A stretch of 64,000 nucleotides of DNA from Naegleria gruberi (GCA_000004985.1 GG738858.1); one strand, 5' to 3'; positions 3,607 through 53,574 are shown, counted from the stretch's first letter. The notes: generated by a model not told the origin, from the sequence alone. Numbers and translations: made by a program.

Positions 3607-3869
3607 ATGATAATTCTTTCACAAAGTTTCTAATAATGAACTTGTTCCTTCTCTTTGTCAGGCATTTACTTGTTAATTAAATCCCTTCATTCTCTTTAAA
3701 TATAATTCAATATTATTTTGGATTGGAAACGAACTGGTCCATCTGCACAAACTATAATGCATTCCCCTTAATTATGTTGTACATTTGCACTTTTTCTGGA
3801 AAGCGTGTAACATTTTAATGACAGCATTCAAGGTATGAATAAACTCTTGGGTTGATAAATTAATATTTT

Positions 3870-5400
3870 TTAATTGCTTTTAATAGGTCTAACAGACGAC
3901 AGTGAATCATAATCAATTTCCAAATCATCTTGATCATTTCTGAATACACACGATGTGAATTCATGATCTAGTAAAACATCATTCATAGTGTAAGAAAATC
4001 GTGCTTGGACATTTGCTGACGTAGCTTCATCAACAGCTTCCAAGCAGGCAATAATTTCAGTATTCTTACTAGTTTTCAATTTTCCATTTACCAAGTAAGG
4101 GTAAAGTGGTGATTCAATGGTAATAAAATGTACAACAGTGTACGGTAAACACAACAGTGGAGTTGATAAATCAATATCCATAGACTTTCCTGCTTGGTTA
4201 TTGATTTGGAAGTAGAGTTCTGAAACAACAGGATAAGTACCAACTCTCTTCTTTCTTCTCCAAAATGTGCTTAAAGCTGTAGTTTCTTGATCTTCGGAAT
4301 TTCTGTATAATTCAGCTTCCTCTACAACTGTTTCATTACTGTCAGCTATCTTGGGTTTCATTCCTGAAGATAATTCAACAAACTGCTGAACAACTCCCAC
4401 ATTAGATCTTTTAAGATCTAAGTTTTGGTGTTCCATAATCCGTTTAGCATGGTTTGTATTTACCCTTTCATGCTCATGTCTTTCATCTTCATTCTTCCAT
4501 TCAATGAATAGTAATCTCAGTTTGGTCGCAATAAATTGAGTTTTTCTCGAGTTAATAAATCTGAAAATCAAATACATTGGCAGAGTTTCCTTAAACGGTT
4601 GTGGTGGTATTATTGCTTGTTGAGCTCTTTGATTTACATCATTAAATATATCTTGTTTTGAAAAATATCCAATATGATTAATTACAGCATTCTTGCTGAA
4701 TAAAATTCTTTTCCTTAGTTTAGTAGGTCTAGAAAATTTAGCGACACTCAATGTAACGACAATTGTCGAAGTAAAAAGTCCTAAAAATGATTGTAAAACA
4801 ACCAAAACATTAGCATAGATGGATTTTGGATAGAGACCTCCATAACCAATTGTAAACATTGTTTGAACTGAAAAGAAAAAACATTGTAAAAAAGCATATG
4901 CTGTATAATCTCCTTCATCAAAATCAGGATTCAATCCACCAATAGTATCTTTACCAGCAACAAAATATGCCAATGCAAATACCAAATGGAGAATTAAATG
5001 AGACAAAATTATTAAAATTAGTAATTTCCACCAAGACCTATATATTGAATTTCATCATAAATTAACAATTCCACAAATGTTTCTTCATTAAAACATACCA
5101 AGATATCAAAAGGTGATACACTGATGTCAGATTCAATAAACTGCTCCTAATAACGTGTTGATTTTTTCTTCTCACTCTGTAGTGATTGGTTTTTCTTGAT
5201 ACTAATCTCGGTAAATCACGAACAAACGTTGGATAAGAAGACAAATGAACAGGACCTGTTCCTCCACTACTATTGTGATGAATATCTTCATTAGTCTTTG
5301 ATGTACTCAATTCAACCTTCTCCTCTCGAACATCATCCACATCCTCATAATCATCATCCTCTTTAAATTTACGGAATGCTTCTTTAATTCGTTTTATCAT
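3870..5400 (-). CDS. Inward-rectifier (Kir)-type potassium channel, 2 exons
   Basis: Exon 1 is 5400..5099 (ATG at 5400, phase 2). The 61-nt intron 5098..5038 runs gtatgt...tatatag. Exon 2 is 5037..3870. The splice joins ..HLLIS-W-SWWKLLILI (M1 helix) in frame. The selectivity filter is TIGYG, followed by M2 and a Kir-like post-M2 segment (FSKNAVI). A TGA lies in frame 7 codons upstream of the exon-2 ORF, so the track's TTG start is not real. Confidence 0.6.
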
Positions 5401-22962: not shown

Positions 22963-23067
22963 ATGTTCTTATCGAAGTTTACTGAGATAAAGTAGTGTTT
23001 CTTGAAAACAACAATTGAATAAACTAATAATAGAAAGTATGCTCAAAAAAATTGTCATACTATGGTC
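22963..23067 (+). repeat. Split direct repeat A1 of the retroelement (105 bp)
   Basis: Identical copy at 26999..27103. The gag ATG (23062) lies inside its 3' end. Confidence 0.85.
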
Positions 23068-24189
23068 GCTAAGAAGCCTCAAGATATTGACTCCTCTTCA
23101 TCTGATGAAGATCTCCCAGCAGTTGAAGTAGAATACCCCACAACACCAGTGAAAGCAAGAAAACAACAAGCTGCTAAGAAGCTTAGAAAGTTAAAGGCCA
23201 TGTCACCTGTAGCTAATAGAAATAAGCGCAAACAATCTACTTCAGTTTCATCATCTAACAGTGCCTTAGATGATGGTATTTCAACTGTTGTTTCCAGTTC
23301 GTTGCTAAGCAATTCAACTTTGTTGGATAGTTCTTCAACTGCACCCTCTTCGTCAAACAATTCGTCTTCTTCCAATTCAGGTAGAGATAGTTTTGCCAGT
23401 AGTTCATCTGAACATGATATCATGGCGATCAAAGCCCAAATGCAAGAAATGATTGGAGTTTTGAGAACCGTAACAGGAAATATCTCTGAACTTACTAAGA
23501 AAGTTCAGGAGAGAGAAGAAGAATCAGATGATGATTTTGTTAATCCAGAAGCTATATCTCCAGAAGTTTGGTTACGTCAAACTTATAGAGACCTTAGAAG
23601 TTCTTACAATGTTCCTTCATCTATTGGAGATGATTTATTACTTTCTGCAGTATCCTCCGAGATACTTAAAGACCGTAAACAAGAGGAGACCAAGAGAAGA
23701 ATTCAATATTTGCTCCTTAAATACAAGGATGTGATTTCCAAGTTTGCCCCAGACATTAGATTGGATGAGATTAACAGTATTGGTTATTCTAAACTAGTAG
23801 AGTTAACTCAAATCAAAATTGAATTGTTGGAATATGCATTGAATTCTCCACTTGATTTTACAGTCATGACAGAGATTACAGAACTTTGTAGAATGATTTG
23901 CAAAGTTGAAGCCCTCTTCCTTAAAGAAGGTTTACAAGTTTCCACTTTCGATGTTGGTAGAGAATTCCTTAACAGATACATTTCTACTAATAGTTTCGAA
24001 ACTGCTGCCGAAAGTGAACTTCATAATATTAGAACAACATATCATTACTACAAAGCAACCAAGCAGCAACAAGGTCCAAAGGGAATTACCAAGAAGTATT
24101 CTAAGAAGAAACCGTTTCAAAAGAAAAACAATAAGGGTCAAGGAAACGGTGGTAAATTCCAAGGAAAAGATAAGGATAAGTCAGAATGA
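23062..24189 (+). CDS. Retroelement ORF1 (Gag-like; Ser-rich N-terminus, coiled-coil, basic C-terminus)
   Basis: ATG inside repeat A1. 375 aa. A basic KKYSKKKPFQKKNNKGQGNGGKFQGK tail is typical of nucleic-acid-binding Gag. Confidence 0.6.
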   Translation: MVAKKPQDIDSSSSDEDLPAVEVEYPTTPVKARKQQAAKKLRKLKAMSPVANRNKRKQSTSVSSSNSALDDGISTVVSSSLLSNSTLLDSSSTAPSSSNNSSSSNSGRDSFASSSSEHDIMAIKAQMQEMIGVLRTVTGNISELTKKVQEREEESDDDFVNPEAISPEVWLRQTYRDLRSSYNVPSSIGDDLLLSAVSSEILKDRKQEETKRRIQYLLLKYKDVISKFAPDIRLDEINSIGYSKLVELTQIKIELLEYALNSPLDFTVMTEITELCRMICKVEALFLKEGLQVSTFDVGREFLNRYISTNSFETAAESELHNIRTTYHYYKATKQQQGPKGITKKYSKKKPFQKKNNKGQGNGGKFQGKDKDKSE

Positions 24190-26062
24190 CTCTTCCACTC
24201 CCTCCTTCCAAGGAGGAAGATTACAACAGTTTTGGAAAAAGTGGCAAATCTTCCCCAAAACTGTTGCAGAATGGATAAGAGAGGGTATTCCAATCCATTC
24301 AGAAAAAGAAAAATGGATCGATATTCCACTAAGATCTCATTTTTCAGAAAAGGAAGATTCATGGTTAAAGAGCGAAATCTCAGATTTACTCAAAACCAAT
24401 ATTATAGAAATTGGAAACAAGGACACTGTCATAAATCCGATTCACGTGGTTCCGAAGAAAGGCAAAGACCAGTTTCGTCTAATCCTAGATTTGAGATCCA
24501 TAAATGCTGGTATAAACAACGACTCATTCAAAATGGATCATATTCACAAAACTCTAAAGTTTCTATCAAAAGACATGTTAGGAATCAAAATAGATTTGAT
24601 GAAAGGTTATCATCACGTTCCAGTGAAGGAAACAGATCGAAAGTTATTGGGATTCAGGTACAACGGCCAGATTTACCATTACAAGTGCCTACCATTCGGT
24701 CTGAACATTGCTCCAAGATTATTCTCCAAGATAATGAAGGTCTTAGTTCAAAGATGGAGAGTAAGAGGAATCTCGGTATTCATTTATTTAGACGATATCT
24801 TAGTGGTAAATCATTCAAAAGATCAGTTGATCTTAGACAGAGATATAGTTCTAAAGGATTTAGAAGAGTTTGGATTCCTCATTCAAAAAGACAAATGTTG
24901 TTTAAATCCAACTCAATTAATAGAATACCTAGGAGTTTTGTTAGACTTTCATCAAGGTTTGGTAAAAATTCCAGAAGACAAAAGGATTACAGCTTTAGAA
25001 TTCATAGAGGAGCTACTCAATGCTTCCCAGAAACGGCTTTATGTTCCATGCAAGAGAGTTGCCAAGTTCCTAGGAAAGTTGGAATTTCTAACAATTGCCA
25101 ACAAGTACCTTTCACCATTCATGTGTCGTCTTCGAAAGAACATGGTTTCAGTAGTATCAGGAAGAGGTTGGCACGCATCAATGCAAATTCACAAAGGCGC
25201 ATTCAAGGATTTATTGATTCTAAGGGAGTTAATTCAAAAGAACGATGGTCATCCGTTCGAATTGGATTGGATTCTCCCAGTGATTGTGAATTCAGATGCA
25301 ACACCTCAAGGTTTCGGCATTCACTCAGGTTCAATCGTTACTGTTGGAAAGTTCAATGGAGAAGAGCACATCAATGTCAAGGAACTAAGAGCCTTACTGC
25401 TTTATTTCAAACAAGCAGACGAATTAAATCTTTATCCAGATTTCACAAATTTCGAATTGAGAGTAGACAACATGGTAGCCGTGGCATATCTAAAGAAGGG
25501 TTATGGATCAAAAGACGATCTCGCAAAGATAGCAAGAGACATCTCAAAGATTCTAATGAGAAGAAATTGGTGGATTTGCAAAGTGATTTACATCCCATCC
25601 AAACAGAATTTCCTAGCAGACAGGTTGAGTCGATTGATGGATTGGGGATCCACCAAGGAACTAATCGAATTAGTCAACCAAGAATTTGGAATACACCATG
25701 TGGACAGATTTGCAACAACGAGTTCGGCAACTACCCTTGTATTCAATTCATGGAAAGAGAACGACGCGTTCAAAAGTCTTTGGGAAAAAGAACTAGTGAG
25801 TTATTGTGTTCCTCCAATAGGATTGATCAGTCAAGCTCTCATTCATCTTATCAAATCCAGATCAATAGCGACATTTGTAATTCCAGAATGGAGCTCCTCG
25901 ATTTGGTGGCCTCTACTCTTAAAGCTATTAAAGAAGAGAAAAAGTATCACAAGAAGGATGCTTTTAATCAAACTATTATCCGAATTATGGATCAAATTCG
26001 AAGGAACGACGTTCATAATTGCTCATCTGGATGGAAACTTATACTTCAAACCAGAGATTTAG
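23906..26062 (+). CDS. Retroelement pol ORF: reverse transcriptase, RNase H, and the DIRS-type C-terminal HVDRFAT..PP..WW domain
   Basis: The RT motif is FIYLDDILVVNHS (YxDD). The RNase H motif is NFLADRLSR. The C-terminal segment has HVDRFATTSSATTLVFNSW..YCVPPIGLI..PEWSSSIWWP. The frame is open from 23906 with a TTG in the track. The first ATG is at ~23951. It overlaps gag by ~280 nt, so expression is by frameshift or internal start. Confidence 0.75.
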   Translation: MKPSSLKKVYKFPLSMLVENSLTDTFLLIVSKLLPKVNFIILEQHIITTKQPSSNKVQRELPRSILRRNRFKRKTIRVKETVVNSKEKIRISQNDSSTPSFQGGRLQQFWKKWQIFPKTVAEWIREGIPIHSEKEKWIDIPLRSHFSEKEDSWLKSEISDLLKTNIIEIGNKDTVINPIHVVPKKGKDQFRLILDLRSINAGINNDSFKMDHIHKTLKFLSKDMLGIKIDLMKGYHHVPVKETDRKLLGFRYNGQIYHYKCLPFGLNIAPRLFSKIMKVLVQRWRVRGISVFIYLDDILVVNHSKDQLILDRDIVLKDLEEFGFLIQKDKCCLNPTQLIEYLGVLLDFHQGLVKIPEDKRITALEFIEELLNASQKRLYVPCKRVAKFLGKLEFLTIANKYLSPFMCRLRKNMVSVVSGRGWHASMQIHKGAFKDLLILRELIQKNDGHPFELDWILPVIVNSDATPQGFGIHSGSIVTVGKFNGEEHINVKELRALLLYFKQADELNLYPDFTNFELRVDNMVAVAYLKKGYGSKDDLAKIARDISKILMRRNWWICKVIYIPSKQNFLADRLSRLMDWGSTKELIELVNQEFGIHHVDRFATTSSATTLVFNSWKENDAFKSLWEKELVSYCVPPIGLISQALIHLIKSRSIATFVIPEWSSSIWWPLLLKLLKKRKSITRRMLLIKLLSELWIKFEGTTFIIAHLDGNLYFKPEI

Positions 26063-26967
26063 GGATGTTGGTTTCGATTAAGGAAGAAACCTTCAAACTT
26101 TACACTAGAAACTATAATGGTTTCTTATGGTTTATTACTGCATTCAATATTTCAATGGATGACCCTTATGCTATTGAGTATTATGCAGCTTATCTTACAA
26201 TTCAAGGTCAAACATCTCGTGTTGAAGCCTTGAGACCATCCCTTCAATTTTGGGCCAATATTGAGAGAAGAGTTTTTCCAATTTCATGGTCTTATGATAA
26301 GATTAAAAGAGGAATTACTCTTATTTGGTCCTTGATTGATAGAAAAGCTTTGAAACGTGATCCAATTTTCTATCATCATATTGAAGGTTTCATTCAGAGA
26401 AAAGATCATTATGATCCTTTCATTTTCAAACTCACTAGTGCCATGTTAGTCATTGGTTTCAGACTTTTCGCTAGACCAGGTGAATTAGCTAGACTCAAGT
26501 GGGGTTATGTTACAAAGCTTAGAAATGGTAACATCAAATTAGATCTCAGTGGTCACAAAACAGATTTCTTTCTACTAGAAAAGCCGATTACTATTGACAA
26601 GCATCTTGAAAATCCTTCAGTGTGTCCAGTGAAATTGCTTTTTGATTACATAGACACTGTACAGCATTTCAAAAAAGCAGATTCACCATTGTTTTCATTG
26701 CAGGACAATATTTTCTTCAACACTGAAGATGTTTCTCAACTTATCAAGAATGCTATGTTCTCTGTTGATTCAGAAATCACTGTTTCTGGTCACAGTTTAC
26801 GTATTGGTGCAACTACTGAGAGTATTATCAAGGGAATTCCTACTCAGGATATTATTATGGGGACTAGACATAAGGATGTGAAATCTTTACAACCTTATCA
26901 AAGACAAGAAGCTCTTGCAGCTCGCCACTTGTCTACTACTCTCCTTTCTCGGGACAATATCCATTAG
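24232..26967 (+). CDS. Retroelement ORF with a C-terminal tyrosine recombinase domain (~26063..26967); its N-terminal 1.8 kb is an overprinted open frame over pol
   Basis: The C-terminal 300 aa contain ARPGELARL, GHSLRIGATT (HxxR) and a downstream Tyr, as in DIRS/Ngaro YRs. The upstream part is a 600-codon stop-free frame overlapping the RT frame. It translates as R/S/K-rich low complexity. Confidence 0.55.
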   Translation: MEKVANLPQNCCRMDKRGYSNPFRKRKMDRYSTKISFFRKGRFMVKERNLRFTQNQYYRNWKQGHCHKSDSRGSEERQRPVSSNPRFEIHKCWYKQRLIQNGSYSQNSKVSIKRHVRNQNRFDERLSSRSSEGNRSKVIGIQVQRPDLPLQVPTIRSEHCSKIILQDNEGLSSKMESKRNLGIHLFRRYLSGKSFKRSVDLRQRYSSKGFRRVWIPHSKRQMLFKSNSINRIPRSFVRLSSRFGKNSRRQKDYSFRIHRGATQCFPETALCSMQESCQVPRKVGISNNCQQVPFTIHVSSSKEHGFSSIRKRLARINANSQRRIQGFIDSKGVNSKERWSSVRIGLDSPSDCEFRCNTSRFRHSLRFNRYCWKVQWRRAHQCQGTKSLTALFQTSRRIKSLSRFHKFRIESRQHGSRGISKEGLWIKRRSRKDSKRHLKDSNEKKLVDLQSDLHPIQTEFPSRQVESIDGLGIHQGTNRISQPRIWNTPCGQICNNEFGNYPCIQFMERERRVQKSLGKRTSELLCSSNRIDQSSSHSSYQIQINSDICNSRMELLDLVASTLKAIKEEKKYHKKDAFNQTIIRIMDQIRRNDVHNCSSGWKLILQTRDLGMLVSIKEETFKLYTRNYNGFLWFITAFNISMDDPYAIEYYAAYLTIQGQTSRVEALRPSLQFWANIERRVFPISWSYDKIKRGITLIWSLIDRKALKRDPIFYHHIEGFIQRKDHYDPFIFKLTSAMLVIGFRLFARPGELARLKWGYVTKLRNGNIKLDLSGHKTDFFLLEKPITIDKHLENPSVCPVKLLFDYIDTVQHFKKADSPLFSLQDNIFFNTEDVSQLIKNAMFSVDSEITVSGHSLRIGATTESIIKGIPTQDIIMGTRHKDVKSLQPYQRQEALAARHLSTTLLSRDNIH

Positions 26968-30750: not shown

Positions 30751-31854
30751 TTTTTTTCTTTAATTGAAGTGGTTGTAAGTACTAAATGTTGATGTATTTT
30801 TTTTAAAGTTCCTAAGGTAAAGTTGCGCAAACATTTTAAATACCTTTTTAAGGTGAGAAGTTCAAATATAGAATTTTTATTGGGAAAGGAAAATTTAATG
30901 AGAAGTGAAATTGGTTGATGATTTATGTAACTTTGAGAAGAATTTTTTCTCAACGAGTAAACTATCTTTTAGACCCTTTATGTTACAGGAAGAGTTCCAA
31001 AAGTTCCAAGAATTTCATCCATGTGCTTTTTTACAATTTGATATATGTCAACAAGAGCTGAAATTACCAATTCGACTGTTTTCGTACAAAGCAAAATGGG
31101 GGGTTCCAGAACCTTCTATTGGTGGTTCCAATGTAAAGTTTTGAATTCTGGAAATCTCTTAATAAAACCTCTCAATTTCTTAAAATCTTACAACCAAACT
31201 TTGCTTTTCGTTTATTATCATGCATGAGATTGAAGGATAGAATACCAGAATTTCATTAATTAATCATGATTACACTCACGATCACAAATTCGTTCAATAC
31301 AATCAGATGTTGATCATGTGTTAGCCATGATGGTGATTAATCATGCCCGATCTCGATTCTTTAATCAAAATTCTGACCCGTATCATGTTAGTAAGGTTAT
31401 GCTGTGGTGTTGAATAGTAACCATTACCTGCTGTTGAGGAATCGAATCGTGTATAATAAGGTATAGAAAGCCACAAGAGAAGTTATGTTGAATTCATTAG
31501 TAATATTACTAATAATAATATTAATGTATTGTCAAGTTGTAACTCTTTGATTTGTTTCATTATTGGAAACTCTCTAGAATTAATAAAAGGTCCTTGATTC
31601 TACTTCTTCAGTAAACTCAATAGGGAAATAATGGCCTTATTTGTTTTGGTTGTTGGACCCAAATTTCAATTCATCAATAACATTAGTAGGAACCAACATC
31701 TTGGAGAAGAATTTCAACAATATGAAAGCATGAAAGTTCTGAATTGAAAATATGAGATCTTATCGGATAGATAATGCAGAACTTTACTGAACTCGTTCAT
31801 TTCAAGTAACGAAACTGACTGTTGACAGGGTTTAGTCTGTTAAAAAAAAAGAAC

Positions 31855-33086
31855 ATGCTCAAGAATACATTGGCTCTATCAGGCGTTGAATTTGATGATG
31901 AAGATCCAGTGTTAGATAGTGAGAACCCTAAAATTCTCTTGTTGGGATCAAGTAAGTTCTTGTACATTCGCATACAATAAACGAAAGTTCAGATGATTGT
32001 GGAAAGACAACGCTCATGAATAGAATACTTGGAAATGCAAAACAAATTGCAATGCAATACATTCATAACGATATTTTAAACAATATTCGAAAGGTCTGCG
32101 AAAAGTGTGTCAATACTCAATCCATTTCGTCTCGTTTACATCAGCAATACCTTTCGTATTGCAAAACACTGATTGAATCAGCTCCCAAGAAAGACTTGGA
32201 ACAGTCACCAACCAATTCGAAAACAATGAATTCATTTCCATCAAAATCTTCACCAGCTTTGCTTGTTCCAAAAACGGCAGAAATGATCATTGATTTATGG
32301 ACGAATTGTTTAGTTTTCAAAGAAACTTTTGACAAGTATAGGGATGAATTGAATGTGAGTGATTCGTGTGAATATTTCTTCAATTCTTCAACGTTGGATC
32401 GATTGTGTAAGGCTTCGAATATTCCCAATTTTGAAGATTCTCTTCGTATTCGAATGGAAACTAAAGGAGTCGATACAAGAAAAGTGTACTATAGTGAAAC
32501 AGAAGGATTTCCAAAACTCCAACAACTAGCTATGGATGAGAAATTCCTCAAACAATATCCTAACTGTATTTCTGTATTAGATTTTGGTGGAAATTGCCGA
32601 AAGAAATGGAAAGGTTACTTCCACAACATTACATTATGTGTATATTTAGTCAATTTAAGTTCGTTTAATAAGAAATCAAAAGAAAATCCAGAAAAGAATG
32701 AACTTGTTGATAGTTTAGAACTGTTTGAAGAAATGGTCAACCATGAAAGTTTCAACAATATTCCAATTCTTCTCCTATTTAATAAGGTCGAGAGATTTTC
32801 AAGTCTAATTGAGAGTGGAAATGATTTATGTAAAATATTTCCAGAATATGAGAATAGAGGGCAATCTGCTAAAGAACGAATTGAATCTTCCCTTTCTTTT
32901 CTAAAATTGAAATTTGAATCAAAAGCTTGGTCAAGGAAAGATTATTTACATTGTCGATTTGTTTCATTGCTGAATAATCAGGATTCCAATCAAGTGCTCA
33001 TGGAAATGCTAACACTAAGTAAATTACTGAAGGAAGATTTTGTTTCAGATAATATTGACAAGAAGAAGAATTGTCTCATCATGTAA
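31855..33086 (+). CDS. Divergent heterotrimeric G-protein alpha-subunit-like GTPase (paralog 1), 2 exons
   Basis: Exon 1 is 31855..31951 (MLKNTLALSGVEFDDEDPVLDSENPKILLLGS, TCA A|gtaagt). The 41-nt intron is 31952..31992 (..ttcag). Exon 2 is 31993..33086. G-motifs present: P-loop GSNDCGKTT, switch-I R..TKGV, DFGG (weak DxxGQ) and NKVE (NKxD). There is no N-terminal MGxxxS or Cys lipidation motif. Confidence 0.65.
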
Positions 33087-33187
33087 CTCTCAAACTTAAA
33101 GTTTCAGTAAAGTTCACTATTAAGATGAGGAAGCATCTCTTAGAAATTTAATATTTAATTGAGAGTGTTTAATTTACAGTTTTACAA

Positions 33188-33828
33188 TTAAAAAACCAGC
33201 ATCAAAGCCCAAACCAATACAACAGTCATTGAAACCACAATACTATTTGCAGCACTCTTACATAAAAACAATTGAGGGTGACCAACTTGATAAATATCTG
33301 AGCAGCTACCAAGCATATCCATCTGTTGCCATGTACAACTTGTTTTTTCACAATTACTAGAATCACAATAAGATAGGCCATAACAGTGAGCATCAGCTAT
33401 TGCGTATTTTTTGATTAGAGGAAGATAAACACATTTACCAATTTGGAACTTATTAATCTCAATAATCTTATCACCATTAAAATGACAATAATCACCAACT
33501 TCAAAATCATGAATAGACCACCACCCAATTTCAGAAAAATCAGCTGGTAATGGATATTTATCTCCATCATAGCATGTTGTGGCGTTCTTCCAACCGAACG
33601 AGCTTGGATAAGAATTAATGCAAGCAGGATTGTTGTTACACAATTATCGTCAACATGATATCTATAGTGAACGATATTAGCATCGGATGAACATGATGCA
33701 GTATTATAAATTTTGGTTAAAGCAAGAGAAGCATCACCTGCCTTAACATGTTGAAGATTTTCCATCAAGTCTACTACAACCATAACAGAAACTAGTAAGG
33801 CACAGAGGTTTTGAACATGTGAGGACAT
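33188..33828 (-). CDS. Secreted Cys-rich protein with a C-terminal hydrophobic (GPI/TM-like) tail; reading frame disrupted mid-gene (two overlapping ORFs 33415..33828 and 33188..33643)
   Basis: ATG at 33828 followed by a signal peptide (MSSHVQNLCALLVSVMVVV). The frame shifts by +1 near 33640 (gat aat tgt gta aca aca versus ttg tgt aac aac) without an obvious GT..AG intron. The C-terminal ORF is rich in Cys and ends in a hydrophobic tail. Confidence 0.3.
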
Positions 33829-34745
33829 TTTTTTTAAGCATGTTGAATTTAATTGTAAAATTTCGAATCTCCCATTTATGGATATTTTGAATATTAATTA
33901 CAGGGTTGTGTTTTTGTAAAAAGTTCATCTGCTTAAATCTCTCCATGACCTTAATGCCCACAGGCAAAACCACTCACAACCATACGGTTGCGACTATTAT
34001 TCATGGTTCATTACCATGGTCGGTATTTTAAGTTTTGACCAAGCCATTCCTTACTGCATATAATTGATATGCTCCCCTTAACAACTTTTCAAGCAACAAG
34101 TTCAAACAATATTGAGATATTGAGCAAAATCTTTAAGAAAGACAATTTCCTCACACAATTAAATAGTATGGAATATATTCCAATCAATCACATCAATATC
34201 CCTATTCACAAGCTGATTTTCAATAAAAAACTGGAAAATTGACTTGAAATTTGACTTGTTCCTTAGAAATTCAAAGAAACTTGTTGAATCTGTGTGAAAA
34301 TTCAAAATTTACCTGCAACTATCAAAATTTTGGTTGAGTTTTTAATAAGGGCCTTTCTCTTTTAGTGAACTAAATTAATGGACTCAGTTCTGTAATGTTC
34401 TTATAAGTTTCGTTTGGAAAATTCTCTATTTTATTCTAAAGTCAAACAGAATGCAACAAAATATTGTATTTATTGGCCAATGCTCTTCGCATGAATGTTA
34501 AAGGTTTCTTTTCTCCGAACTTGCAACCATATAATACTCTTAATGAGAAACCATGAGTTTCGAATGAAAAATAGCTAAACCTTAACAACCATGGATTTCT
34601 AACCACAATTTTATAAGCAGTCCTTATTTAGAAAGTTGGTCAATGTCAAAATCGGCACTATTTTCCCAATGGAGGAACGAAAATAAATGTTATTCATGCG
34701 AGTTGGACTAAACCTTTCGGGTAGATTTACTAACAAAAAAAAAGA

Positions 34746-36124
34746 GATGCTTCGCTCCACAGGTGATCGTTCTGAAGTCGATCTAGACGAAATGCTAGAG
34801 CAAGATCAAGCTAAAATACTTTTATTTGGTTCAGGTATGTTGTAATGCAAGCCAAATAGATTAAATTATTATTCGAAACTTAGGCGATAGTGGCAAAACA
34901 ACCTTGTTAAAACAAATTCACGGAATGACATTTTCCAAATATTACAATCCAACACGTCTCGTGGGATCCATTGTTCAAGACATTCTCAAGAATGTAAGAT
35001 TAGTTTGCGAGAGATGCATCGAGGGAGGACAGATTAGTCAGGAAGAGTTTTCACAATGTGACTATATCATTCAGATTGCAAAATCAACGAATAGCACCTC
35101 CACACCAAAGAAATCCACAAGCACAACTCAGGATTCACCACTTCCTAGCTCACCAATCAACACGCCAGATAAGAGATCAAGTTATGGAGCTAATGCATCA
35201 TCACCTGTTGGTGGTGGTGGACATGGTGCTTCACCTGGAAGTGGAGCTGGATCACCATCTCGCATGAATAACTTGGTGAGTAAGATGGACGATGATTTGC
35301 CTGATAAGATTCTGAGATTATTGAATCATTCAGAAATATTTAGGAAAACTGTCGAATCATGCAGGGAGAATGAAAGATTGTCGGATGGAATTGAACATTT
35401 TTTGTTAAATTCATCAAATTTGAGAAGAGTTTGTGAGTTTAATTATGTTCCTTCGATAGCAGATATTGTATATTCAAGACAGAAAACAGTGGGTCTCATA
35501 GAAACGAGTATAAGATATCATGAAGTTGATGGATTTCCAAAGAAGGAAATTCACAACTTTAACGATTTGGAAAAACAATTTCCTAGAACCTTAAAACTTG
35601 TTGATACCGGTGGTCAATCATCTGAAAGAAGAAAATACAAGAATGTTTCATTTAGTAGTGTAAGAGCCTGTGTTTTTGTGGTCAACATGTCAGGTTTCAC
35701 TAAAAGTCTATACGAGAATGAGAATGTTAATGATCTGATTGATTCCATTGAACTTTTCAAAGAGTTATTCAATCAGCCATTCTATGAAAATGTACCAATA
35801 CTATTACTATTCAATAAGATGGACATGTTTAGCTATCAAATTCAGAAAGGAAAAGATTTAAGTTCTCTCTTTCCAGAATTTGACAATAATGCAACGATTT
35901 TAGAGGAAAAAGTTGATAACTCTCTCAAATTCCTATTCAAAAAGTACAAGGATACTCTAAATTCTAATCCAATACGAGTGCAATACATGCCAACCGCTCT
36001 AACTGATTTGAAAGATGCTCAGAAAGTATTCGAAAGAGTTATGGAACTGAGCGAATTACTAACTTGTCCCGAAAGAAACAATGAAATGACTTCTAATGAT
36101 AAGAAAAAGTGTACCATCATGTAA
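34746..36124 (+). CDS. Divergent G-alpha-like GTPase (paralog 2), 2 exons; exon 1 carries an apparent +1 frameshift
   Basis: Exon 2 is 34884..36124 with (G)DSGKTTLLKQIHG, RQKTVGLIE, LVDTGGQSSERRKY and LFNKMD, and looks intact. The ATG at 34746 (MLRSTGDRSEVDLDEMLE) is homologous to paralog 1 (MLKNT..). A single extra C near 34800 (gagCcaag) puts QDQAKILLFGS|gtatgt in another frame. The 49-nt intron is 34835..34883 (..acttag). Confidence 0.55.
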
Positions 36125-36148
36125 AATAAATATAATTCTCATTCATAT

Positions 36149-37828
36149 TTATTGAGATGGAGTTGAAGGATTCAACCATGGTTTAGTCACTCTTGATACT
36201 GCCTTTTCAGATTGGAGGAAGGAGAGCAAGAGGCCATAATTAGTGATTGGAACACCTGCTTTGGATAGGTCAGAGAGACGGGCATTCATCTTTTGCTTAT
36301 CAATCATACATCCTCCACAGTGAATAATGAGTTTGTATTGGGAGAGATCCTTAATAAGCTGATACTCTCTGCCAAAGACAATATCCACCTTGATATTTCC
36401 CTGTCCAAATCTTTTTTCAATTGCTCTTGGTATTTGAACAGTACCGATATCATCTGCAATTCTGTTGTGATTACAAGCTTCACAGAGTAAGACTGAATCG
36501 CCTGGTTGGAGAGCTTTGAATGCTTCAATTCCTTTCAAAAATTCTGAAAGTCTTCCATTACTCATAAAGTTAATCATAATGACACTGAATGTAGTGATAT
36601 CAATAATACTCTCCTTTGTTGCCTCATCAATAGTCCATGGATGCACAATATCCATAGCTTGCGAGTCGGTAATTAAGAGTTGTAATTTTCCATTTGAATT
36701 AAGAGTTTTGATGGCTTCGAGGAATCTCTTCTTCTCCTTTTCCACAAGCTCCTTATCCGAACTTCTTGCATGTTTCAAATTCATTCTATATGAAAATACA
36801 TTGCTATACTCCCTGAGTAAATATTCATGAACCATGGCTTGAGGTTTGAGTAATCTACCAGATGGTGTCTCCTCATCCATTGGAATATTCAAAAATACAG
36901 TAGAGTTTTCCATTAAATTTGGAAGTAATCTTGTTGGATACATTGGAGTAGAGCTTGCCTTCATTTTACTCTTCTTGTGGCAATCTTCAATGAACTTGAT
37001 ACATTTGGTGTGAGCAATTTTTGATTCCAAATCCACACATGTAGTTCCACAGAAGTACTTATTCATTTGAACATTTCCCTGTTGCTCAAATTCATTGACT
37101 TTCAAATCAGTTTCAATCGAATCCAGCTTATCACTCAAACTCTCCACAGATGATCTCTTCAACTCGGAAACATTGAATATAATACAGAATGGTCTTTCAT
37201 TCTTTTCACACTCACCAGTCAACCATTTGGCTTGTTGAACACTGCTACCATTGAAAGGATCCACCACTACAACCACAATATCGGACTCTTTAAGGGCAAT
37301 CAGTGTTTTTTGTCTCTTCTTTTCGCCAAGATCTGATGCCTCATCAGTACCTGGTGTATCAAATAACTTTGTTGGACCAATACCGTGCAACTCCATAGTT
37401 GTCATCTTTACATCAGCAGTTGTACCAGGTGTAGAATCCACAATACTAGTATTTGAATTGGTCAAACAGTTCATCAGAGTTGATTTTCCACTATTCATAG
37501 CTCCAACAATTGCAATATTTGTCCTTTCAATGTAAATCGAGCCAATATTATTAGCACTATCACTTAAACTCACTCCAGAATGGAATAATTGTTTAGAATT
37601 CATTGAAAATTCCTTCATCATTATCTTTGTATTCATCATCATTTTCCATTCCGATGATCTTTTCACAGCTGATAATAATGGAAAATCCAACAATGAATTA
37701 CATTGTTGTATTGGCAATGATCTCCTCACAAGAGGTGAGGAACACAATGTTCGGATCAAGTGTTGTTGATGTGATTTCATTTTTTTAAAGTGCTTTTTCA
37801 TAAAACTAACCTTTTTAGTAACTTTCAT
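36149..37828 (-). CDS. hydF: [FeFe]-hydrogenase maturation GTPase HydF with a basic, Ser-rich N-terminal extension (organellar targeting-like)
   Basis: ATG confirmed at 37828. The GTPase region has G1 IAIVGAMNSGKSTLMN, G2 DSTPGTTAD and G3 LFDTPGTDE. The C-terminal FeS-binding signature is CEACNHN ... HCGGC (CxH...HCxxC), which is diagnostic of HydF rather than Era/EngA-type GTPases. The ~100-aa K/R/S-rich leader (MKVTKKVSFMKKHFKKMKSHQQHL...) precedes the GTPase region. Confidence 0.7.
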   Translation of the reverse strand: MKVTKKVSFMKKHFKKMKSHQQHLIRTLCSSPLVRRSLPIQQCNSLLDFPLLSAVKRSSEWKMMMNTKIMMKEFSMNSKQLFHSGVSLSDSANNIGSIYIERTNIAIVGAMNSGKSTLMNCLTNSNTSIVDSTPGTTADVKMTTMELHGIGPTKLFDTPGTDEASDLGEKKRQKTLIALKESDIVVVVVDPFNGSSVQQAKWLTGECEKNERPFCIIFNVSELKRSSVESLSDKLDSIETDLKVNEFEQQGNVQMNKYFCGTTCVDLESKIAHTKCIKFIEDCHKKSKMKASSTPMYPTRLLPNLMENSTVFLNIPMDEETPSGRLLKPQAMVHEYLLREYSNVFSYRMNLKHARSSDKELVEKEKKRFLEAIKTLNSNGKLQLLITDSQAMDIVHPWTIDEATKESIIDITTFSVIMINFMSNGRLSEFLKGIEAFKALQPGDSVLLCEACNHNRIADDIGTVQIPRAIEKRFGQGNIKVDIVFGREYQLIKDLSQYKLIIHCGGCMIDKQKMNARLSDLSKAGVPITNYGLLLSFLQSEKAVSRVTKPWLNPSTPSQ

Positions 37829-51337: not shown

Positions 51338-53574
51338 TTAAAGTATTTTCTTTTCGAGTTGTTTGAGAATATTTTCGAGTAACTCAACAATTTTTGTGGT
51401 TCTGTTTTTGCACTTGGTTTCATCGAAATCTGAGAGATTAGTCAATTTCTTGACTTCGTTGTTGATATTCAATGGTTCCTTATTCAAGTATTTCAATCTG
51501 TTTTCATCTGTGGTATCCTTTGTGAATGATTTACCACATAGAGTAAAGTTACCAATTTGGAGATAGCAATTATCCATCTTCTTAGCCAATAATGGTTTGA
51601 TATTGCATAACTTGAGATTACGAGGATATTGCAAGTCGAAATTAGATGCATTCGGATCAGAAAGGAAGTCTTCAATGATTGGTAAAACAGTTGAGAAAAT
51701 CTTTTTAAGCTCATTACTTTGTTTCTTCTTTGATGGGGCAGTGCTGTCATTATTGGCTAATCTAATGATCTTCTTGCTCCATTGTGAATAATTGGATTCC
51801 TCACTGTCATCACTTGCCTTTTTGCCTCCCTTTTTCTTGCTCTTTGTCTTGGTCAATATGGTTGTGAGTTCCTTAAAATCAACAACTTTGTTGTTCAAAA
51901 GATTACTGATCTCAGCCATCATGTAAGAGAACTTGACCTTGGCAAAGTCACACAAGCAAACTTGGAGTACGTGATTGTGCCAAATTGCAATTAATTGCAA
52001 TACATCTGCTTCTTCAACCTTGGAACTGACATTATAGGTGAGAAAGTGTTGGCCATGTTCCTTGCAATGTGCAATAGCAATAAGAGTTGCTAGGACTATA
52101 TCTGAGGCCACTTTTTGTGCCTTTGGGAGGTAATTTTCAGCAATGTGGTGTGTTCTGCTGATCATCTTGTTAATAAGGTGATTCTTCTCATTATTAGTGG
52201 AGAATACAGGACGATTTGCTGAACTCTTTGATTGATGACCAATGAAAATAGGAGTCATGTAATTGTTCATGAAAGTTTCACCAAGATTTTCAATATTGAC
52301 AGTTGTCTTCATGTGGGAGGCAATTTGGTCAAGAAGTTTCAAATATTCTCTATTGCTAACATTCACATTCTTTGTTGGGTGTAGCAATTGATGAATGTTT
52401 TCAAGAATATTTGAGAAATCTTCGCCAACTTCTTGATACATGTGATTCCAAGAATCAACCATTTCTTGATTCTTTTGGTGATTGTGGCAACCAAATAATC
52501 TTCCAAAATCAAGCTTGAGTTTGTCCATTGGTGACAAATCCTTTCCTCTCAAATTCAAAGTACCAAAGATTGCTAGTTCATTAGCATGTTCTGGAACTGT
52601 AATGGTAACAACAATACAATTGTGACTCAAGAAGTGAATGAAATCAACCATTTCTTCTTGTTTCTTGAAAAGCTTTTTGATTTTAAGGATGGAATGCAAG
52701 AAGTTTTTGGCACAATTCATGGCAGAAGTGGAAGTAATCTCCTTTGCTTCTTCGAGCTTGGTGATTATTTCATCAACCTTGCTCTTCTTAAAGTCACCCT
52801 CGTCCATACTGGCCTTCTTTAAAATGTTAGCAAATCCCTTCTCTTCGACAATGTACTTTTTAAAGAATGTCTTTTCCTTTCCTGCTACACCTTCTTCATC
52901 ATTGCAAACCTCAATTCTTGCTTGACCTTTCAGAGTTCCCTTGTGAATCTTCAAGTAAACTTTGCTAATTGTCTCAAAATTTTCTTCATACTTTTTCTTA
53001 TTGATACATTCTCTGAGGGCAGAGTAAAGAATGGAGAGAGAGGTCAATCTTTGTTGACCATCTATTACTTGTTGTCTGTTACCTGCCTTTAGGACAATGG
53101 AGCCAATAAAGTAGCTGCTCTCTGGTTCATTCTTGTTATACTCATTGTAGACATCATCAAGAAGGTCCATAATGTTGTCGATCTCCCAAGCATAAGGACG
53201 TTGGTATTCAGGAATAGAATAGCACAATTCAAAAAGATTGTCAATTGCTCTATTGTTGGTGGTCAACTCCCAAGCTCTTCTTTCTGAGGCAACTATCTTT
53301 GGAGGAACAGGTGGACTGAATGTGAGTGGAGAATCTGTTGAAAATGGAAGAGAGGTATCACTCTTAGAGCTTGATGGAGTTGCTGGTTGTGAAGAAGAGG
53401 AAGGAGTACTGGCGATAATGGTTTGTTCCTTCTTGGTCTTCTTCTTGTCTTTCTTTGGGGTAATGTCAGAGCAGTCTCTGGTGTTTTTCTCTTCTTGTCT
53501 ACCCCCTTTGACCACTCGGGAACCCCTGCTTCACATTCAACTTCATGAACTATTTCACTATTGAAACAGTTCAT
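51338..53574 (-). CDS. DUF262 (GmrSD-N / ParB-like nuclease fold) domain protein with a low-complexity N-region, 2 exons
   Basis: The DUF262 motifs are IPEYQRPYAW ... IDGQQRLTSL and a downstream LNLRGKDL block. The main frame has no ATG before the domain; the track start is GTG. Exon 1 is 53574..53503 (ATG, MNCFNSEIVHEVECEAGVPEWSKG). The 50-nt intron is 53502..53453 (gtagac...ccaaag). Exon 2 is 53452..51338, beginning KDKKKTKKEQ. Phase 0 on both sides. Confidence 0.6.

Follow-up and report, generated by a model that had tools for sequence, protein, structure and literature searches.

In textbook heterotrimeric G proteins, the alpha subunit (Gα) is tied to the membrane at its N terminus, its N-terminal helix holds Gβγ, and its free C terminus reads the receptor. 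The small GTPase K-Ras4B ends in a lysine run, much longer than three residues, followed by CVIM, in which the final Met (position X) specifies farnesyltransferase. Among GTPases of the Rheb family, lineages have swapped C-terminal prenylation for N-terminal acylation (PMC5869587). In the genus Naegleria, lineage-specific diversification of Gα has been documented in N. gruberi (PMC3971589), a farnesyltransferase gene has been reported for N. fowleri (NF0130130; PMC7560193), and a study of N. fowleri Gα proteins has characterized unusual P-loops, inserts, and self-activation among them, without touching on myristoylation, palmitoylation, prenylation, or CaaX in its main text (PMC9283941). Can a Gα protein carry its membrane anchor at the opposite end? 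Here, we describe two divergent Gα genes, gene 1 and gene 2, that lie on the same strand between positions 31855 and 36124 of a 64,000-nucleotide stretch of Naegleria gruberi DNA (GCA_000004985.1 GG738858.1; from here on, the window). Their products, copy 1 and copy 2, lack the N-terminal residues on which Gα lipidation depends and end in a polybasic CaaX box, so that their anchoring topology is predicted to be inverted.

Compared with canonical Gα proteins (human Gα-i1 and N. fowleri Gα 1 to 13; PMC9283941), the pair shares the Ras-like and helical domains, the switch I Arg and Thr, and a P-loop of the form GxxxxGK[ST], and copy 2 also has the DxxGQ and NKxD motifs. Unlike them, the pair is without Gly2, without an N-terminal Cys, and apparently without the αN helix; it adds an insert between strands β2 and β3 and a C-terminal extension that ends in KKK-CaaM. 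Copy 1 further lacks the catalytic Gln and the Gly equivalent to Ras G12, and in copy 2 the switch II Trp found throughout the N. fowleri proteins is replaced by Tyr.

A polybasic CaaX box closes both proteins (...DKKKNCLIM in copy 1 and ...DKKKCTIM in copy 2) and directly abuts the stop codon. CLIM and CTIM each combine Cys at -4 with an aliphatic a2 residue and an X drawn from M/S/Q/A/C. No other short segment is as well conserved between the copies, whose mutual protein identity is 32%, as this nearly identical tail. AlphaFold2 (AF2) models, built from a 12-sequence alignment, place helix α5 at residues 361 to 377 of copy 1 and 405 to 423 of copy 2, with a tail of about 19 residues beyond it (378 to 396 and 424 to 442). 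The tails are predicted to be disordered, with a predicted local distance difference test (pLDDT) score of <50 at residues 380 to 396 (copy 1) and 422 to 442 (copy 2). The CaaX is thus preceded by a flexible segment and by KKK, a second membrane signal just three residues long. Lysines together with a CaaM end were found in none of the 148 nearest Gα representatives, among which Cys at -4 occurs only in Gi-type ends (CGLY, CGLL, CELF, and CGMI). A Gα representative ending in ...FCCL (P0148) was weighed as another possible example of lipidation at the C terminus and rejected; it stops 13 residues after TCA(L)D and looks truncated.

Set against the K-Ras4B anchor, the pair likewise has Cys at -4, Ile at a2, Met at X, lysines directly upstream, and a flexible linker. 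It differs in that the motif sits on a Gα fold instead of a small GTPase, in that the lysines number three, and in that the modification is a prediction. We consider it likely that both proteins are prenylated at the C terminus. An earlier note on this DNA had described the two genes as being without lipidation motifs, which holds for the N terminus of both but not for the C terminus.

The N termini read MLKNTLALSG in copy 1 and MLRSTGDRSE in copy 2. They agree with the starts MLKNT and MLRST given earlier, and neither protein has Gly2 or a Cys before the P-loop, while 98 of the 148 nearest representatives start with MG. The segments before strand β1 are 25 and 22 residues long and strongly acidic (net charge, -6 and -5, respectively); AF2 builds no αN helix in copy 1 and six helical residues, at low pLDDT, in copy 2. 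Residues were mapped in an alignment to human GNAI1, with eight other Gα proteins aligned. In this alignment, the β2-β3 insert of 21 to 22 residues (..EGFPK.. and ..DGFPK..) is common to both paralogs and absent from all eight other Gα proteins. The C-terminal KKK-CaaM motif probably explains the missing N-terminal lipidation signal. Such a change would parallel the one described for Rheb, in which members of a single GTPase family traded prenylation at the C terminus for acylation at the N terminus; here, it would run the opposite way (from the N to the C terminus) and in another family, and that study does not treat Gα (PMC5869587). A CaaX-bearing or prenylated Gα, or these loci by tag or accession, were not found in the searchable literature, and a prior description is possible.

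Copy 2 also carries a low-complexity insert in its helical domain (residues 97 to 158). The earlier note had called it rich in Gly, Ser, and Pro, and its composition is indeed rich in Ser, Thr, Pro, and Gly. It contains seven Ser/Thr-Pro sites, and phosphoregulation of the insert is possible but speculative. The AF2 model has a pLDDT of <50 over residues 100 to 162 of copy 2, and the corresponding position in copy 1 is occupied by a shorter disordered loop (residues 100 to 119).

That the two proteins are Gα paralogs, as the earlier note had it, was confirmed by both profile and structure comparisons. The Pfam G-alpha profile PF00503 (cutoff, 48.8 bits) matched copy 1 with 199.7 bits (E = 9.2e-59, profile positions 21 to 328 of 333) and copy 2 with 230.1 bits (E = 5.3e-68, positions 16 to 331 of 333). 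The best sequence relatives of the pair in the PDB were Gα o/i/t, Selaginella GPA1, and N. fowleri Gα-7 (6NE6), with an E value of ~1e-23 for copy 2 against Gα i/o. The AF2 models (pLDDT, 77.8 for copy 1 and 72.8 for copy 2) contain a Ras-like domain and a helical domain in both proteins. When the model of copy 2 alone was submitted to Foldseek, the top matches were all Gα structures, with target-normalized template modeling (TM) scores of 0.70 to 0.87. By sequence and fold taken together, the best PDB matches are Gα i/o/t/q, plant GPA1, and N. fowleri Gα-7. As modeled, the two genes encode the full Gα fold.

The divergence of the pair is considerable. Only a single 100-nt stretch of the two genes is still recognizable at the DNA level, at 70% identity, and we therefore regard the duplication as old. 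In an exhaustive profile search of 1.84 billion representative proteins with the pair alignment, the two copies scored 877 and 620 bits, and the best of all other proteins reached 169 bits. Of the 148 nonself representatives listed, the ten with the highest scores were examined as orthologs and rejected; those with names were fused double Gα gene models of nematode and chytrid origin, and the others were unnamed metagenome proteins. A word-indexed homolog search with copy 2 gave 11 matches, of which the best nonself match (Anaeramoeba) had 33% identity over 48% of the query, and it did not retrieve copy 1. No close relative was found in a scan of JGI metagenomes with the pair alignment, which yielded just two generic Gα fragments (38% identity over 58 residues). 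A query for Naegleria Gα termini with a 115-residue fragment of N. fowleri Gα-7, taken from the PDB alignment, returned only short metagenomic fragments. The pair thus appears to be an orphan, strongly diverged Gα branch, with no ortholog detected in the 1.84 billion representatives.

How might such proteins work? In the mechanism that we propose, the membrane anchor would have shifted from the N terminus (Gly2 myristoylation and Cys palmitoylation) to the C terminus, where the disordered tail of 17 to 21 residues, with KKK and CLIM or CTIM, would serve as a farnesylation and polybasic signal of the K-Ras4B type. The C terminus would be farnesylated and then presumably trimmed and methylated, and the three lysines would help to hold the membrane. 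The N-terminal helix that holds Gβγ would be gone, with a short, strongly acidic peptide in its place, and the extreme C terminus would be buried in the membrane instead of entering a receptor as in canonical Gα. Because the αN helix appears to be absent, the β2-β3 hairpin is remodeled, and the C terminus is predicted to be membrane tethered, the two proteins are probably not classical heterotrimer subunits. On balance, from motifs and models, we favor the reading that these are two intact, spliced, anciently duplicated Gα genes whose products would be Ras-like switches tethered by a farnesyl group instead of serving as receptor-coupled heterotrimer subunits. That the pair is independent of Gβγ and receptors is a more doubtful proposition, toward which we lean a little less than away.

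The two proteins could instead be ordinary but divergent heterotrimeric Gα subunits that reach the membrane via Gβγ or receptors, with a C-terminal Cys left unprenylated like that of the Gα-i end CGLF. Both are clear members of the Pfam family, copy 2 keeps every catalytic residue, and Gα-i/o-type proteins too have a Cys at -4, which in Gα-i-type proteins is reportedly not prenylated. However, Gi-type ends have F, Y, L, or I at position X and no basic patch, whereas here Ile is followed by Met at X, with KKK directly upstream, the canonical combination of a farnesyltransferase site and a polybasic signal. Conservation of the tail above any other short segment and the absence from both proteins of Gly2, an N-terminal Cys, and, as predicted, the αN helix also speak against ordinary subunits, and we regard this alternative as unlikely.

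Several points nevertheless weigh against the reading of the pair as farnesyl-tethered switches. Expression, prenylation, and membrane binding of both proteins are sequence-based predictions, and a basic patch of three lysines is far weaker than that of K-Ras4B. The comparison of tails covered the 148 nearest representatives, and other N. gruberi Gα paralogs may carry a CaaX tail as well. The absence of the αN helix rests on alignment and on low-confidence regions of the AF2 models, and coupling to Gβγ or receptors through a noncanonical interface is possible. Selection (see below) was measured on copy 1 alone, from 16 substitutions and one allele. Finally, the gene starts are computational predictions.

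This last point bears on the possibility that both gene models fall short at the 5' end and that an upstream exon would supply Met-Gly(-Cys) and the αN helix. Gene 2 has an additional in-frame ATG upstream, at 34687, that would add 20 residues (MLFMRVGLNLSGRFTNKKKE). This alternative start reads MLFMRV..., so neither start of gene 2 gives Met-Gly, and the ATG of gene 1 is the first in its ORF (open reading frame; 31822 to 31980). In addition, the start ATGs of both genes lie in a like A-rich context (AAAAAAAAAGAACATG and AAAAAAAAAGAGATG), and the N-terminal peptides align. For gene 2, we favor the start at 34747 over that at 34687 on the basis of annotation and homology with gene 1. A missing upstream exon seems to us quite improbable.

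To return to the two proteins as candidate Ras-like switches, we compared their catalytic and nucleotide-binding residues by using GNAI1 numbering. The Arg finger (R178) and Thr (T181) of GNAI1 correspond to R186 and T189 in copy 1 and to R228 and T231 in copy 2, and these columns are invariant in the alignment. Gly42 (equivalent to Ras G12) is kept in copy 2 and is Asn33 in copy 1. Gln204 (equivalent to Ras Q61) is kept in copy 2 as Q274, within DTGGQ, and is Asn in copy 1, in which switch II (DFGG-NCRKKW) is two residues shorter than GGQRSERKKW. Thus, of the catalytic Arg and Gln, whose retention the earlier note had raised, the Arg is present in both copies and the Gln in copy 2 only. The NKxD motif is NKMD in copy 2 and NKVE in copy 1, and the G5 motif (TCAT) is a near-canonical TALTD in copy 2 and a degenerate VSLL in copy 1. 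Trp211 of switch II, universally conserved in the 13 N. fowleri Gα proteins (Bosch et al. 2022, PMC9283941), is kept in copy 1 and is Tyr in copy 2. Overall, the catalytic set (the Gln, the Gly equivalent to Ras G12, NKxD, and TCAT) is essentially complete in copy 2 and not in copy 1.

Substitutions at the same P-loop Gly position slow GTP hydrolysis in N. fowleri Gα-1, which has a TAQ P-loop, and in the G42V and G42R variants of Gα-i1 (PMC9283941). On the basis of the residue mapping and these published data, we infer that copy 2 functions as a GTPase and should bind and hydrolyze GTP and that copy 1 is GTPase deficient, either locked or a pseudo-GTPase. Copy 1 resembles the impaired Gα proteins in the substitution (by Asn) of the conserved Gly; it differs from them in further lacking the catalytic Gln, in its shortened switch II, and in its altered NKxD and G5 motifs. 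In the proposed mechanism, copy 2 would cycle, and copy 1 may act as a locked signal or a regulatory partner.

Is copy 1 then a decaying, functionless relic? The replacements G42N and Q204N, the latter with a two-residue deletion in switch II, the NKVE motif, and the change from TCAT to VSLL would fit such a history. However, its 396-codon ORF is intact in a genome with a GC content of 33.5%, its AF2 model is confident over the core, and an environmental allele points to constraint. The second member of the 90%-identity cluster of copy 1 comes from ENA metagenome ERZ929261 (contig k127_97127, 3.9 kb; here called L001), which is 96.4 to 96.7% identical to the window at the DNA level over two main alignment blocks. 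The coding sequence of copy 1 differs from that of L001 by 9 synonymous and 7 nonsynonymous differences, the latter amounting to 6 amino acid changes. The corresponding ratio of nonsynonymous to synonymous polymorphism (pN/pS) is ~0.20, with a binomial P of 0.0015 for at least 9 of 16 differences being synonymous under neutrality. The ORF, GSNDCGKTT, DFGGN, NKVE, and KKKNCLIM are all unchanged in L001. Given this low pN/pS and the unchanged motifs, we conclude that purifying selection maintains copy 1 even though its catalytic set looks "broken," and we consider a relic very unlikely. The complete scenario is nonetheless a tentative one, held with less confidence than the independence from Gβγ and receptors discussed above; it would have this Gα branch converted to monomeric, farnesyl/polybasic-anchored Ras-like switches without Gβγ or insertion into a receptor, with copy 2 competent and copy 1 selected as a GTPase-dead protein.

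The gene models on which these comparisons rest were read from positions 31500 to 36500 and from the ORF list and then spliced by hand. In an exact-sequence lookup, the 396-amino-acid product of gene 1 was identical, letter for letter, to EFC46447.1/XP_002679191.1, and the 442-amino-acid product of gene 2 was identical to EFC46448.1/XP_002679192.1. Both genes are therefore already annotated in Naegleria gruberi exactly as spliced here, on a 782-kb scaffold and labeled just "predicted protein." The introns of both genes are in phase 1 and interrupt the same codon, that of the third P-loop residue (GS/N and GS/G, where the slash marks the splice site). Reading and translation bore out the altered P-loops GSNDCGKTT and GSGDSGKTT, the first exon of 97 nt in gene 1, and the intron lengths of 41 and 49 nt, all as previously noted (Table 1). 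Searches by tblastn with both proteins as queries found no other Gα locus in the 64-kb window.

The same could not be said of the first exon of gene 2, for which the earlier note had given 89 nt and a frame disruption caused by one extra C near 34800. The string in question, GAGCCAAG, occurs nowhere in the window, which reads GAGCAAG at 34798. Exon 1 has 88 nt, comprising 29 codons plus 1 base, and the split codon takes its other 2 bases from the start of exon 2. The ORF list shows a single uninterrupted frame, ...MLRSTGDRSEVDLDEMLEQDQAKILLFGSG, up to the splice donor, and across the junction MLRSTGDRSEVDLDEMLEQDQAKILLFGS is continuous with GDSGKTT. The claimed frameshift is a reading error, and because the extra C was misread, there is no frameshift, pseudogene, or recoding left to explain. 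Both genes are intact, with a confidence close to certainty. A disrupted frame in copy 2, whether from sequencing error, a young pseudogene, or programmed recoding, can be set aside in view of the missing string, the one frame from the ATG at 34747 to the donor, the exact match of the product to an annotated protein, and the age of the duplication.

Table 1. Features of the two Gα genes and of the gene between them (positions in the window; a slash in a motif marks the splice site)
Feature	Position	Strand	Remarks
Gα gene 1 (NAEGRDRAFT_65413), exon 1	31855..31951	+	97 nt; ATG at 31855; encodes MLKNT...KILLLGS and first base of Asn33 codon; identical in L001
Gene 1, intron	31952..31992	+	41 nt; GTAAG...CAG; phase 1, within P-loop codon; identical in L001
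Gene 1, exon 2	31993..33086	+	Includes TAA stop; rest of P-loop GS/NDCGKTT
Gene 1, Arg finger R186/T189	32442-32468	+	In exon 2
Gene 1, β2-β3 insert	32493-32558	+	
Gene 1, switch II DFGGN	32580-32594	+	Without Gln
Gene 1, NKVE	32781-32792	+	
Gene 1, degenerate G5 motif	32952-32972	+	
Gene 1, C-terminal polybasic CaaX box KKKNCLIM	33060..33083	+	From translation; identical in L001
Gene between the paralogs	33188..33828	-	Cys-rich protein; not part of the Gα pair
Gα gene 2 (NAEGRDRAFT_65415), exon 1	34747..34834	+	88 nt; ATG at 34747; intact frame MLRST...KILLFGS and first base of Gly30 codon
Gene 2, intron	34835..34883	+	49 nt; GTATG...TAG; phase 1, P-loop codon as in gene 1
Gene 2, exon 2	34884..36124	+	Includes TAA stop; carries GS/GDSGKTT
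Gene 2, Ser/Thr/Pro/Gly low-complexity insert in helical domain	35084..35269	+	Residues 97-158; from composition
Gene 2, Arg finger R228/T231	35468-35494	+	
Gene 2, β2-β3 insert	35519-35581	+	
Gene 2, DTGGQ	35603-35617	+	
Gene 2, NKMD	35813-35824	+	
Gene 2, TALTD	35990-36007	+	
Gene 2, C-terminal polybasic CaaX box KKKCTIM	36101..36121	+	From translation

The pair had also been called tandem. The two genes share a strand but are not directly adjacent, as the opposite-strand gene listed in Table 1 lies between them. It is this intervening gene that contains the sole genuine 1-nt frame break of the region, at 33630-33631, where the window has TT and L001 has TTT. The break splits the gene in the window into ORFs 33415-33828 and 33188-33643, and the version in L001 encodes an intact 213-amino-acid Cys-rich protein with a signal-like N terminus and a hydrophobic C terminus, for which we found no Pfam match. 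The break could stem from an error in the assembly, mark a pseudogene specific to the strain, or call for a gene model with a different structure.

Comparison with L001 revealed two further differences in the surroundings of gene 1. Upstream of the gene, ~690 to 700 nt of the window (31006-31707) are missing from L001, which has 13 other bases there (TAGGACTCTTTTA). This segment is flanked by a 10-nt direct repeat, AAGAATTTCA; across its 702 nt there were no terminal inverted repeats, and there was no second copy in the window. At the contig end, L001 positions 3776-3889 match window positions 34234-34347 in inverted orientation with 98% identity, which means either that the strains differ by a small inversion or that the contig end is chimeric.

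Downstream, gene 2 is met by a converging gene for the [FeFe]-hydrogenase maturase HydF (36149-37828, minus strand), with 24 nt between the stop codons. Its product matches HydF_tetramer (5e-39), HydF_dimer, and the MMR_HSR1 GTPase domain. Because the simple 559-amino-acid HydF ORF had no exact match in the protein collection, the annotated HydF model probably differs from it. Elsewhere in the window, long overlapping ORFs in different frames occupy 23062-26967 (plus strand), one of which (911 amino acids) has a weak Phage_integrase match (E = 7e-4, below the Pfam cutoff); the region may be a tyrosine-recombinase mobile element. A 725-amino-acid ORF at 51338-53515 (minus strand) has a restriction-endonuclease-type N-terminal domain, GmrSD_N (DUF262; E = 4e-32), in a eukaryotic genome. 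Lastly, a homolog of inward-rectifier (Kir-type) potassium channels is encoded at 3870-5006 (minus strand; IRK_C 2e-17, IRK, and Ion_trans_2), ~27 kb from the Gα pair, with no sign of a link between them.

What remains is a pair of annotated but uncharacterized divergent Gα paralogs with a predicted inverted anchoring topology. If this prediction is true, they would be, as far as the searchable literature goes, the first Gα proteins with a C-terminal prenyl anchor. The Gα fold could then be redeployed as a receptor-independent membrane switch, and the pair would provide a natural test case for the dependence of Gα function on membrane topology.

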